A stretch of DNA of 10,667 bases from a virus. A model generated the notes under the pieces. That model was not told where the DNA came from. It saw nothing but the letters and a program-made list of their open reading frames with translations, and made no database searches. Where the stretch lies: IMG/VR virus record IMGVR_UViG_3300045972_000602. One strand, given 5' to 3'. A program made the translations under genes and the position numbers. This document shows, in pieces, positions 1 to 2,897 of this stretch (the first letter of the stretch is position 1; each line of letters begins with the position of its first letter).

Positions 1-2745
1 CATGAGCGCGACGTTGAGGTTCTTGCCCAGGGACAGGACACCATCCTTGGTGTAGTTGGAGTCGGCTAGGAGTTGGTCCTTCTTGACGTGGTCGCCAGCC
101 TTGACCGACAGCTCGTTGTTCAGGTACGACTTCGCGCCGAGCGGGTAGTTGGTGTCGTACTTCACCCTGACGAGCCCGTCTTCATTAGCTGCCGCAGCCT
201 TCTCGTAGGTGGACTTAGGGAGCGGCGTGCCGTGCGGCGTCATGCGGCTAGATAGGATGGTAGCGAGGACCACCTTCTTCTTCTCGCCCGCGCCGACCGT
301 CTTGAAGGCTGCGTAACCGCCACCGAAGGGTAGGGGGAGATAGTAGGAGCCGCCCGGCGTGAGGGTCCGTGCGATCGACCGCAGCCGCCCGTTGATCTCC
401 GGGTTGAAGGTAGTCCGCTCCTCGAGCCGATCGTCGGCGTGCTCTGCCGTCTTCTCAACCAGGGCGTCCTTGATGGCCTTGACGTTCGTCCAGTCACCGT
501 TGGGCGGGATCACTCCCAGCTCGTCGTACATGCGGTACTTGAAGTCCCTATAGGCATTCTCGTCTCCGAGCTGCTTCAGGTCGTACTTCTGGAGGATGAT
601 CCCGTCCTTCACTGACTGAGGGGCCAAGTGTAGCTTGTGGACACCCTGCTGGATGAAGTCCACCTCGTGGTGCGGGCGGAGCTTGACCTCGATGTCCTTC
701 CCCTCCGGCGTCTGGTATCCGTGGACGACGTAGGTGCCGTTGTCTTCCTTCACGGGCATACCCATACGCTGCAGTCGCTTGCTCTCTGCGCGCACGTTGG
801 TGACAGGTACGTGCAGGTCGATGTCGCTCATCTCACCCGGCAGGTTGATGCCCCAGTGAGTAGAGCCCGCCGGGTGGATCACGGCCCAGCCGTACTGCTG
901 AGCCAGGTTCTTGATCTCTCTCGAGGTGATCGTCGCTGCCTCTTCGCGGGTGGCCTTGGCCGCGTCGAGGACAGCCTGCTCCTCGGGGTGGTAGCCTCCC
1001 TCCCCGATAAGAGCGGTGTCTGCGCCGTGCTTGGTCCCGTGCGGCCGCACATAGATGTAGGCCGCATCGATATGATCAATCGTCCCGTCTACAGGGGCAA
1101 TCGGTACCGTCATAGCCCCGATGACGCTCTCGAAGCTCTTCCCGGTGTGAGACTTGACCTGGATGAGAGGCGGCTCCTTGTCCTGGAGGGCTAGGGCCTG
1201 GGTCTGCATCTTGGCTGCCATGAGGGCACGGTTGCCCTGCATGCTCTCCATGAGCGGGACCAGGTTGGTGGCCGGGCTATACATAGTACCCGGGTGCTCC
1301 ATCTGGTAGTCGACAGTCTTGGGATCTACGCTGCGCAGCACGCCCTTGAGAAGAGCGTCTACGTGCCGGGTACCCTTGACGTCCTGCTTGGGGAAGGCCA
1401 CGACGGACTGGGCTACCTTGCCGGCGCCGACGTACTCGTACTTACCGGTCCGGACGTTGCGGAGCGGCGTATAGAGGTTGCCCTCCTCGTCGCGGGCCGT
1501 GTGGATGGCTGCGCGGACGTCGGCGCCTGAGGCTTCAGACTCGGTAGTACGGACAGGGTCGATGATCCCGAAGTGGCTGACGTGGACCTGACGAGCCTCG
1601 AACGGCACGGCGCGGATGTCTCCGATGCCGCCCTCGCCTAGTGGAGTAACCTTCTGCGAGACGTCAATGACTTCCACGGGGTTGTAATTGGTGGGAATCG
1701 TGGAGATGTCTGACTGAGTCAGGAAGCTCTTGACAGCACCGGTGAACATGCCGCTAGGCACGACCTGTCGGGCCTCCGGGGTGGCGCCGCCGTGGTCCAT
1801 CTTGCCGACGATCTTCCGCTTAAGGTCTCGCGCAGAGATGCTGATGCGCTCCTTAATGAAGTCGTCCACCTGGTGGATACGCTTGAACTCGAGGCTATCG
1901 CGGTCATCTACGTCTTCCGCTGCCTTGAACACATTGATCAGCTTCTGTGACGCCTTGAGCAGCGTCTCAGGCTTGACCACGTCATGGTTCACGCCGAGCG
2001 TCTTCTGAACTACACCGGGGTCGATCTTGGCGGTACCGAACCAGTTGCGGATCTCGGCTACGCGAGCCTCGTGAGTCGTAGCGTTCTGGCGGTACTCCGG
2101 GGTGATCTTCTCGTACAGCTTCTGGATCGCAGGCTCAATCTTCTTGCCGTATTTCTGTTCGTTCTGGGCCGCCAGGTCGTGGCCCCAGTGCTGAGCAATG
2201 TCGGCGTGCGTAACCCCGATACCGCGTAAGACAGGGTAGAGGTCGATGTTGGACCCGCTCATCCGCATATGGAGCTTGCCCGTCTCAGGCTCCATCGCGA
2301 GGCTAAAGTTACCGCCCTTCTTAACTAAGTTGAACTGGGACTCCAGCTCCTGGTTACCGCGGCGGCGGGTGTAGACGCCAGGCTTAAGCCGTACCTGGTT
2401 GGCTACAGAGTACTCATTGCCGTCTACAATGAAGGTGTGGCGCTCGGTGAACCAGGGCAGGTGCAGCAGGGTGGCGTTGGCTGCCCGGCTGATCTCGGCT
2501 CCGGTAACCTTATCCTTGAGGACCAGGGTGCCCTTAACCGGCTCGGTCAGCGATCGGCCTTCGAGGACCGCCTGCTTTTGCTCGTGGGAGCTGTAGTCAG
2601 CCGGGTGGATGGTGAGGTCTTCCACCGTTAGGACGTGGCGCGCCCCCTCCATAGGGAAGACGCCCTTAATCCCGTCTACAGCCTTGTTGCGGATGAAGTC
2701 ACGGCGCTTCGAGGCGGCTGTAAGGATCGGGATAAGGTCGGCCAT
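1..2745 (-). CDS. Multisubunit RNA polymerase beta-like subunit (N-terminal ~915 aa, 3' end beyond window edge); phage-type highly diverged RpoB homolog
   Basis: Start codon ATG is the complement of 2743-2745. I checked every triplet in this minus frame from 2745 to 1 and found no stop, so the ORF track misses it only because it is open-ended. The translation begins MADLIPILTAASKRRDFIRNKAVDG. It contains FIVDGNEYSVANQVRLKPGVY (compare RpoB [22 protein letters not shown]) and GEGGIGDIRAVPFEARQVHVSHFGIIDPVRTTESEASGADV (compare RpoB LGPGGL..ERAGFEVRDVH..HYGRVCPIETPEGPNIGL). It also contains MESMQGNRALMAAKMQTQALAL (compare RpoB NRALMGANMQRQAVP). GC3 is high throughout. The SD is weak or absent, and TTG at 2787 is an alternative start. 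Confidence 0.85.
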   Translation of the reverse strand, partial: MADLIPILTAASKRRDFIRNKAVDGIKGVFPMEGARHVLTVEDLTIHPADYSSHEQKQAVLEGRSLTEPVKGTLVLKDKVTGAEISRAANATLLHLPWFTERHTFIVDGNEYSVANQVRLKPGVYTRRRGNQELESQFNLVKKGGNFSLAMEPETGKLHMRMSGSNIDLYPVLRGIGVTHADIAQHWGHDLAAQNEQKYGKKIEPAIQKLYEKITPEYRQNATTHEARVAEIRNWFGTAKIDPGVVQKTLGVNHDVVKPETLLKASQKLINVFKAAEDVDDRDSLEFKRIHQVDDFIKERISISARDLKRKIVGKMDHGGATPEARQVVPSGMFTGAVKSFLTQSDISTIPTNYNPVEVIDVSQKVTPLGEGGIGDIRAVPFEARQVHVSHFGIIDPVRTTESEASGADVRAAIHTARDEEGNLYTPLRNVRTGKYEYVGAGKVAQSVVAFPKQDVKGTRHVDALLKGVLRSVDPKTVDYQMEHPGTMYSPATNLVPLMESMQGNRALMAAKMQTQALALQDKEPPLIQVKSHTGKSFESVIGAMTVPIAPVDGTIDHIDAAYIYVRPHGTKHGADTALIGEGGYHPEEQAVLDAAKATREEAATITSREIKNLAQQYGWAVIHPAGSTHWGINLPGEMSDIDLHVPVTNVRAESKRLQRMGMPVKEDNGTYVVHGYQTPEGKDIEVKLRPHHEVDFIQQGVHKLHLAPQSVKDGIILQKYDLKQLGDENAYRDFKYRMYDELGVIPPNGDWTNVKAIKDALVEKTAEHADDRLEERTTFNPEINGRLRSIARTLTPGGSYYLPLPFGGGYAAFKTVGAGEKKKVVLATILSSRMTPHGTPLPKSTYEKAAAANEDGLVRVKYDTNYPLGAKSYLNNELSVKAGDHVKKDQLLADSNYTKDGVLSLGKNLNVALM

Positions 2746-2842
2746 AGTAGTCTCATAAAGATAGGAGGTTCCCGAGGAATCCTCCAATTTTGAGGGCCCC
2801 CCACCCCCTGCCCGTACTGTCCGAAAACCGTGCTCCTAATTG

Positions 2843-2853
2843 GGTATAAGAAT
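2843..2853 (+). promoter_or_regulatory. Copy 1 of conserved GGTATAAGAAT motif (context gGGTATAAGAATgTATCGAaGCC); putative phage promoter, 44 nt upstream of ATG 2898
   Basis: Copies 1 and 2 share about 20 nt of identity. The TATAAG core occurs six times in the window, always in intergenic DNA and always on the plus strand. That is far more than chance expects in a 62% GC sequence. Confidence 0.4.
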
Positions 2854-2897
2854 GTATCGAAGCCTTTATAACCTACCCAACCACGGAGTTAACAAAT

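Follow-up and report, generated by a model that had tools for sequence, protein, structure and literature searches.

A phage-encoded, beta-like RNA polymerase large subunit whose beta loop carries a predicted nucleotidyltransferase and a second, orphan module

The window analyzed here, i.e., a 10,667-nt stretch of viral DNA to which all positions refer (IMG/VR record IMGVR_UViG_3300045972_000602), carries at its left end a minus-strand gene whose product is clearly a beta homologue. Judged by its sequence, the gene encodes, as far as it lies in the window, the N-terminal 915 residues of a large subunit belonging to a multisubunit RNA polymerase of bacterial type that the phage itself encodes. 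A loop of this protein holds a 284-amino-acid (aa) insertion that went unnoticed in an earlier note on the same DNA and that is made of two modules, a predicted nucleotidyltransferase (NTase) and a putative RNase. The reading that we favor, with a probability of about 0.75, is that of a polymerase resembling that of Salmonella phage Arash, with beta fused to the N-terminal half of beta′ (beta′N), delivered in the virion, and with the loop acting as a cargo slot for accessory enzymes. The parts of the gene are as follows:

1..2745, minus strand: coding sequence for the N-terminal 915 aa of a phage RNA polymerase large subunit (beta-like), based on the open frame, Pfam, the PDB and homologues; the C-terminus lies past the left edge.
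1024..2745, minus strand: beta core, aa 1–574 (diverged N-terminus, lobe, fork, NRALM region and first sandwich-barrel half), aligned with bacterial beta (query 69/92–574) and colinear with all family members.
1219..1233, minus strand: NRALM motif, aa 505–509, with R506 and M509 invariant in the family alignment.
172..1023, minus strand: the 284-aa insertion, aa 575–858, in a beta loop (hairpin of the first sandwich-barrel), based on the PDB alignment jump, homologue coverage and a loop survey.
1..171, minus strand: beta resumes, aa 859–915, second sandwich-barrel half (VRVKYD...GKNLNVALM), aligned to bacterial beta 620–661 and to all family members.

On the minus strand, a single frame stays open between 2835 and the left edge of the window. 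When the protein is aligned with its homologues, their N-termini point to the ATG at 2745 as the start, so that the window contains 915 codons uninterrupted by a stop. The earlier note was right to count at least 915 contiguous residues; of the range 1–2897 that it gives, 2746–2897 is intergenic and non-coding. Its proposal of a beta-like identity is upheld by Pfam, in which Rpb2 domain 3 (PF04565) passed its cutoff (23.9 against 21 bits) and Rpb2 domain 2 (PF04561) narrowly missed it (19.8 against 21.7 bits), and by a phmmer search of all PDB chains, which matched 48 distinct bacterial or plastid beta sequences with E-values from 5.6e-38 (a cyanobacterial beta, the top match) to 2.6e-18. The suggestion that the canonical bacterial N-terminus is lacking was overstated, as query residues ~69–92 onward already align with bacterial beta ~93–102, and the first 70–90 aa are diverged and present. 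As for the catalytic-cleft motifs said to be kept, NRALM and the fork region are indeed seen (NRALM at aa 505–509 rather than ~520), whereas the true double-psi-barrel motifs of beta (GDK..GNKG; Pfam Rpb2_6) fall past the left edge; all full-length homologues have them, and of beta the window covers no more than the lobe, fork and NRALM region plus the first sandwich-barrel.

Homologues were collected by tblastn against 50,697 phage records, by a search of 5.8 billion proteins, and from IMG/VR loci. The relatives among the phage records are all distant, with one matching place per record, the best being Arash gp206 (32% identity); the other isolates are Vibrio phages D69, D148 and D181 (~187 kb), in which the homologues are unannotated. 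The protein search returned 246 homologous proteins, the best of which (P0001) is 63% identical and others 44–56%; nearly all are 1450–1600 aa long, with a fused chain of ~1460 aa, and their contigs reach ~197–198 kb. In addition, 243 IMG/VR loci were confirmed for the polymerase family. The nearest relatives all lie on phage or viral contigs beside portal, helicase and sigma genes, and the proteins neighboring the gene in the window match PHROG families, in agreement with the earlier view of a phage-encoded, non-chromosomal polymerase among phage-like neighbors; the arrangement that the earlier note had named as evidence for a chromosomal region, ribosomal-protein genes around an rpoB-rpoC operon, is found in none of the closest relatives.

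The family alignment is colinear over the beta part, everything being aligned except the insert, and in the homologues a single chain carries the beta N-terminus, GDK..GRHGNKGV and then NADFDGD/DYDGD, stopping ~60–95 residues past NADFDGD. Pfam Rpb2_3, Rpb2_6, Rpb1_1 and Rpb1_2 are likewise found within one homologue protein, and three genomic contexts show a separate ~600-aa gene for the C-terminal half of beta′ (beta′C), with Rpb1_5, three or four small genes downstream. Sigma-70-like genes lie near the polymerase gene in related phages. Arash follows the same plan, with Rpb2_3/Rpb2_6 and Rpb1_1/Rpb1_2 in the one chain of gp206 and Rpb1_5 in gp216; in mass spectrometry of its virions, as given in passages of PMC10585845, gp206 led all proteins in the number of spectra, and gp216 was abundant too. 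To the earlier question of whether beta is split or intact, the homologues give a third answer: beta is intact and is joined to one half of a split beta′. We found no description of this fusion in the literature searched. From these homologues we infer that the polymerase of the window has beta fused to beta′N, a separate beta′C and a dependence on sigma, and from Arash proteomics only that it may be packed in the virion. Since neither a phiKZ-like assignment nor one to the multisubunit-RNAP-encoding Caudovirales (mReC) fits, we treat the window phage as a member of a separate Arash-like lineage with genomes of ~150–200 kb.

Residues 575–858 were identified as an insertion because homologues cover only part of the query (each of the best 120 of the 246 covers just ~62%) and because the PDB alignments leap from query residue 574 to 874 while the target moves 14 residues, bacterial beta having ~14 residues there. 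The same loop is 10–59 aa long in most family members, and in a survey of these best 120 homologues, 28 have at least 60 extra residues at this place. A polyvalent-type inorganic pyrophosphatase (InPase) accounts for 11 of the 28, a GNAT acetyltransferase for 2 and module B (the second module of our insert) for 1, and the remaining 14 contain no recognized domain. Within this sample, module A (the first module) at the loop, and an insert of two domains, occur in the window protein only. Among the relatives, P0001 and P0177 have module B at this loop. Several loop inserts of 140–160 aa without a Pfam match (P0094, P0077/P0086, P0114 and P0032), one of which has a ParB-like ‘DGLHR’ motif, are candidate cargo domains.

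The insert does not look like recent junk, because its GC content at third codon positions (0.83) is near that of its flanks (0.79 and 0.91) and its frame is intact. As a whole it gave no Pfam match at E ≤ 10 and only noise in PDB phmmer, the word-indexed homologue search returned nothing, and a single-sequence AlphaFold (AF2) model was useless, with a predicted local distance difference test score (pLDDT) of 40. Exhaustive HMMER searching of 1.84 billion representatives resolved it into two independently mobile modules, both of which are otherwise known from the ‘polyvalent’ effector proteins of phages. The polyvalent-protein domains named in passages of PMC5512222 include InPase, GNAT, Pol-beta NTases and BECR RNases. 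An intein or homing element was considered for the insertion and rejected, as neither the window protein nor the insert has an intein, LAGLIDADG or HNH match. In contrast, P0177, a 2463-aa metagenomic member of the fused-polymerase family, has a LAGLIDADG intein at residues ~2114–2334, past its Rpb1 domain 2 (beta′) region. The two modules and the catalytic signatures are located as follows:

466..987, minus strand: module A, aa 587–760, predicted Pol-beta-superfamily NTase, based on predicted structure and catalytic signature.
853–870, minus strand: module A catalytic G627-S628, hG[GS] signature.
811–828, minus strand: module A catalytic D641/D643 (D641-I-D643), [DE]h[DE]h signature.
679–696, minus strand: module A catalytic E686, h[DE]h signature.
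220..456, minus strand: module B, aa 764–842, orphan domain with invariant H769, R777 and T829 (HAxDRLxER ... VLAT[IV]L), based on ~65 representatives, on alignments and on its presence at this loop in P0001.

As modeled, module A is a compact Pol-beta-fold NTase with an intact G-S / D-x-D / E catalytic set. With an alignment of 22 sequences, AF2 predicted its structure at pLDDT 93.4, and the top 50 Foldseek matches in the PDB are almost all Pol-beta-superfamily NTases (Pol lambda/beta, Cid1, GLD-2, TUT7 and URT1). In the 22 homologues the catalytic S, D and D are invariant, with either D or E as the third acid throughout. Module A of the window gave no Pfam match even at E ≤ 10, and its homologues gave two weak, sub-threshold matches of NTP_transf_5 over the motif (E 0.003–0.005). 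Its ~25 representative relatives are mostly multidomain proteins with a LigD 3′-phosphoesterase, a GNAT or a C39 peptidase. The likeliest chemistry, by analogy, would be untemplated nucleotide addition to an RNA 3′ end, because of these structural neighbors and of the co-occurrence with a 3′-phosphoesterase elsewhere, the alternative being a protein or small-molecule acceptor. Moreover, module A lies at residues 313–492 of P0121, a 648-aa metagenomic protein of phrog_2986 (E 8e-65), with 48% identity, which by sequence is an independent insertion into a second, different phage polymerase lineage.

The representative relatives of module B number ~65, and many stand alone as proteins of 90–180 aa. 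H769 and T829 are invariant in 29–40 aligned sequences, and they resemble, at the level of the motif only, the signature of phage BECR RNases, which is described in passages of PMC5512222 as a His in the first helix and a Thr or Ser in a late strand. Profile searches of the PDB, PHROGs, and a profile search with precomputed Pfam labels returned no match. We therefore keep the RNase reading at the motif level, because family searches gave no match, and regard module B as a putative BECR-type RNase.

The polymerase gene is transcribed divergently, as the earlier note had it, because all other plausible genes are on the plus strand. Its absence of a Shine-Dalgarno (SD) sequence was also borne out, with no GGAGG-type sequence within 15 nt of the ATG and the sole GGAGG ~35 nt upstream, as was the lack of the neighbors’ motif on its strand: GGTATAAGAAT occurs three times, always on the plus strand (2843, 3454 and 8751; 0.04 expected by chance). 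The region between the divergent genes is the following:

2746..2897, no strand: divergent intergenic region, with a GC-rich element at ~2790–2812 and TTGGGTATAAGAAT at 2840–2853, both facing the plus-strand genes.

No copy of the GC-rich element or of the TTGGGTATAAGAAT box faces the polymerase gene. GGTATAAGAAT is part of a longer (T)GGGTATAAGAAT box, and the GC-rich element, GGGCCCCC[CT]ACCCCCT, stands ~25–45 nt upstream of this box. Paired blocks are found on the plus strand at 2790–2853, 3413–3464 and 8700–8761, the GC-rich element being clear at the former two sites and degenerate (GGCACCCACCCT) at the last. In the closest relative (L004, 63% identical), the region opposite the polymerase gene has kept both blocks, at positions 4075–4145 of that locus. 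A scan of the divergent region for sigma-70 consensus promoters gave nothing meaningful. The box and the GC-rich element together suggest a bipartite phage promoter, perhaps read by a phage sigma and the polymerase.

Taken as a mechanism, the Arash-like, virion-delivered reading would run as follows. The polymerase would work with phage sigma-70-family factors; packed in the virion, it would enter the cell with the DNA and start transcription, and its beta loop would be a cargo slot for accessory enzymes of the type found in injected polyvalent proteins. Arriving together with the polymerase, the NTase would extend RNA 3′ ends, or modify some other host target, by nucleotide addition; module B may bind or cut RNA, and the two modules together could aid early transcription, RNA-end repair or counter-defense. 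Several points weigh against this reading. The window stops at residue 915, and the fusion, the beta′C gene and the sigma genes are seen in relatives only, at 63% identity or less; attempts at leftward contig extension, with exact 30–42-mer scans of IMG/VR, JGI metagenomes and GTDB genomes, gave no match. Virion packaging is evidenced in one phage, Arash, whose protein is only 32% identical. The best structural match of module A, GrpB, is itself uncharacterized, and nucleotidyl transfer is only predicted. Module B had no Pfam match, the PBECR and DUF4258 models included (10 trimmed members at E ≤ 10; 40 full proteins), and its only model, built from a single sequence, is of low confidence (pLDDT ~40–50). 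Finally, the fact that other family members have an InPase in this loop suggests an accessory role in housekeeping (pyrophosphate removal), which suits a ‘helper of transcription’ as well as an ‘effector cargo’.

Two alternatives concern the nature of the polymerase itself. The earlier note had taken it for a jumbo-phage enzyme of the phiKZ/AR9 type, i.e., one of two paralogous sets (virion and non-virion), sigma-independent and with split beta and beta′. It is a phage multisubunit polymerase, the beta′ of its relatives is split roughly where phiKZ-like beta′ is (PMC7824862), and the Arash polymerase is virion-associated. However, no phiKZ/AR9 chain appears among the PDB matches at E ≤ 0.01, all of which are cellular beta, with E-values down to ~1e-38, and the PHROG ‘RNA polymerase beta subunit’ family (phrog_3295) matches only at 5e-4 over 49 aa; moreover, beta is contiguous and, in homologues, fused, and related genomes (~150–198 kb) have a single copy and sigma-70-like genes. 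The phiKZ/AR9 assignment is thus already contradicted, and we give it a very small probability. A diverged cellular rpoB, either chromosomal or captured by a prophage, would explain why the best solved structures are bacterial or cyanobacterial beta and would suit a GC content of 60%, and yet identity to bacterial beta is just ~25–30%, the close relatives are all on viral contigs with phage genes, and the genes next to it in the window match PHROG families. In addition, the window has no ribosomal or rpoC gene, and exact matching against 185,579 species genomes returned nothing, so that we consider a cellular origin hardly credible.

The other alternatives accept an Arash-like polymerase and differ on what the insertion does or on when the enzyme acts. 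The insertion could be a passenger, passive or selfish (a mobile domain in decay, or an intein-like element), with no role in enzyme function. The loop does accept many unrelated inserts, half of them (14/28) without a recognizable domain, the closest relative, P0001, has no module A, and P0177 has a real intein elsewhere in the protein. Against this, module A has kept its catalytic residues, which are invariant across 22 homologues, codon usage is like that of the host gene, no intein or homing-endonuclease signature was found, module A was inserted independently in another phage polymerase subunit, and the recurrent inserts are enzymes suiting polymerase or host-conflict functions; a mere passenger therefore seems improbable to us. 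It was also considered that the polymerase may be synthesized only once the cell has been infected, serving middle or late transcription as a non-virion enzyme whose inserted domains act in cis on nascent transcripts by 3′-end tailing or cleavage. A separate expression class is suggested for this gene because it lacks both the promoter-like motif of its neighbors and an SD; the InPase in the loop of relatives would suit a co-transcriptional helper (passages of PMC5512222), and the structural neighbors of module A are RNA 3′-tailing enzymes. Set against this are the Arash homologue, the most abundant protein in virion mass spectrometry, and the occurrence of both modules otherwise in proteins thought to be injected. 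We regard synthesis after infection as possible, at clearly less than even odds, and it is compatible with delivery in the virion.

A bolder version of the favored, virion-delivered reading may be put forward, which we consider speculative and rather unlikely to hold in full. In it, beta would be a modular chassis with a surface loop into which conflict enzymes are swapped and then carried in by the injected polymerase, be it a pyrophosphatase, an acetyltransferase or, as here, a terminal-transferase-like NTase with a putative RNase. In this phage, the two would cut, tail, repair or mark RNA 3′ ends at early transcription, possibly with the adjacent RNA-repair genes. If true, this would be the bacterial-virus counterpart of polymerase-coupled 3′-end processing.

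The other genes of the window are all on the plus strand. The product of 4213–4677 is a fungal-tRNA-ligase CPD/2H-like phosphoesterase (E 7e-5), that of 9156–9626 is an AAA_33/polynucleotide-kinase-like P-loop protein (PHROG ATPase, E 5.5e-20), and that of 10192–10665, cut by the right edge, has a cyclic-phosphate-processing receiver domain (cREC_REC, E 4e-12). These 2H-like, P-loop and cREC_REC neighbors suggest, by sequence similarity, an RNA-end-repair theme, and an AAA_33 gene is also found opposite the polymerase gene in L004. A 75-aa protein (3132–3359) has a CxxC...CxxC zinc-ribbon-like pattern with no family match, and an identical copy was found on a 2.2-kb Logan contig of run SRR35489184.

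Between the 2H-like and vault-like genes, ~1.1 kb (4680–5800, plus strand) has no credible open reading frame (ORF). A variant promoter-like motif, TGGTATAAGGAAAT (~4953), lies near its start and a terminator-like hairpin (5754–5780) at its end, and the folding of an 821-nt stretch of it beats shuffled sequences (z = −2.8; 0 of 20 shuffles as good). The region contains no tRNA and has no Rfam match even at E ≤ 1, and it is a candidate large structured non-coding RNA. It adjoins the gene at 5826–8435, which encodes an 869-aa protein with a major-vault-protein shoulder (E 2.7e-25), a vault repeat (E 3.3e-11) and a weak SPFH match; such a vault-like shell protein is unusual for a phage, and it had no PHROG match and no record in an exact-protein lookup. 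A long antisense ORF (5739–8165, minus strand) probably represents a shadow frame of GC-rich sequence.

Arguments about the early evolution of transcription draw on the multisubunit polymerases of phages, which are also candidate minimal portable transcription systems. The Arash-like lineage is abundant: metagenomes contain hundreds of its loci, and isolates number at least four. Its beta loop repeatedly captures enzymes otherwise found in injected anti-host proteins. If module A is active, this would be the first cellular-type polymerase with a second nucleotidyl-transfer center built into beta, and virion polymerases would be tied to the polyvalent-effector strategy. For practical use, the family also offers naturally occurring sites at which beta tolerates insertions.

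Among known systems, the closest object is the polymerase of Arash, which is annotated yet unanalyzed: PMC10585845 labels gp206 simply ‘beta’, and the fusion is unmentioned in the passages searched. The window protein is colinear with gp206 (32% identity over aa 2–596, the alignment resuming past the loop). The polymerase gene either diverges from small genes or lies next to them, and the related phages have one copy per genome and a sigma-like gene nearby. In contrast, Arash has no loop insertion, and the window phage has a GC content of 60% and is known from metagenomes only. The mReC of Weinheimer and Aylward 2020 (PMC7481178) are tailed phages of similar size whose polymerase is, as here, recognizably close to cellular beta/beta′, unlike the phiKZ or crAss enzymes. 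However, their supplementary tables give separate adjacent genes for beta (1011–1377 aa) and beta′ (903–1010 aa), whereas the family of the window, judged on homologues and not on the window, has a ~1460-aa fusion and a ~600-aa beta′C; their capsids are of the gp23 type (PF07068), whereas the Arash capsid protein has no PF07068 and a weak HK97-type PF05065 match (E 0.0036). Membership in mReC was rejected on this gene architecture and capsid type, the window itself holding no capsid gene.

The phages of the phiKZ type share with the present family a multisubunit enzyme, a beta′ split after the catalytic barrel and a virion-packaged form, and differ in having beta in two to three pieces and no detectable sequence similarity to the window protein; their split beta, two paralogous polymerase sets and lack of sigma are described in passages of PMC7824862 and PMC7598289. 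According to passages of the latter, one of the beta fragments of AR9-type virion polymerases is additionally fused to an HD hydrolase domain, and accessory enzymes on virion polymerases thus have a precedent. N4-like virion polymerases are joined with a zincin peptidase, a PBECR1 RNase, an ADP-ribosyltransferase and a lysozyme in the passages on them of Iyer et al. 2017 (PMC5512222), i.e., an injected polymerase physically linked to effector domains, which is the same logic as proposed here. They differ in their single-subunit, T7-like polymerase, in end-to-end fusion rather than loop insertion, and in the other domain families involved. The present case departs from these precedents in the type of polymerase, in the insertion into a loop instead of an end-to-end fusion, and in the domain families.

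Module A, for its part, differs from the GrpB/terminal nucleotidyltransferase branch of the Pol-beta superfamily (TUT7, Cid1, GLD-2), with which it has 9–17% sequence identity, in being a compact domain of 174 aa embedded in a polymerase loop. As regards the fused architecture, the rpoB-rpoC fusion of Helicobacter and Wolbachia indicates that beta can join beta′ without loss of function, and the rpoC1-rpoC2 split of cyanobacteria and plastids that beta′ can be split shortly past NADFDGD, likewise without loss of function. The events are not homologous to those described here, and in the Arash-like family both rearrangements occur together, in a phage.

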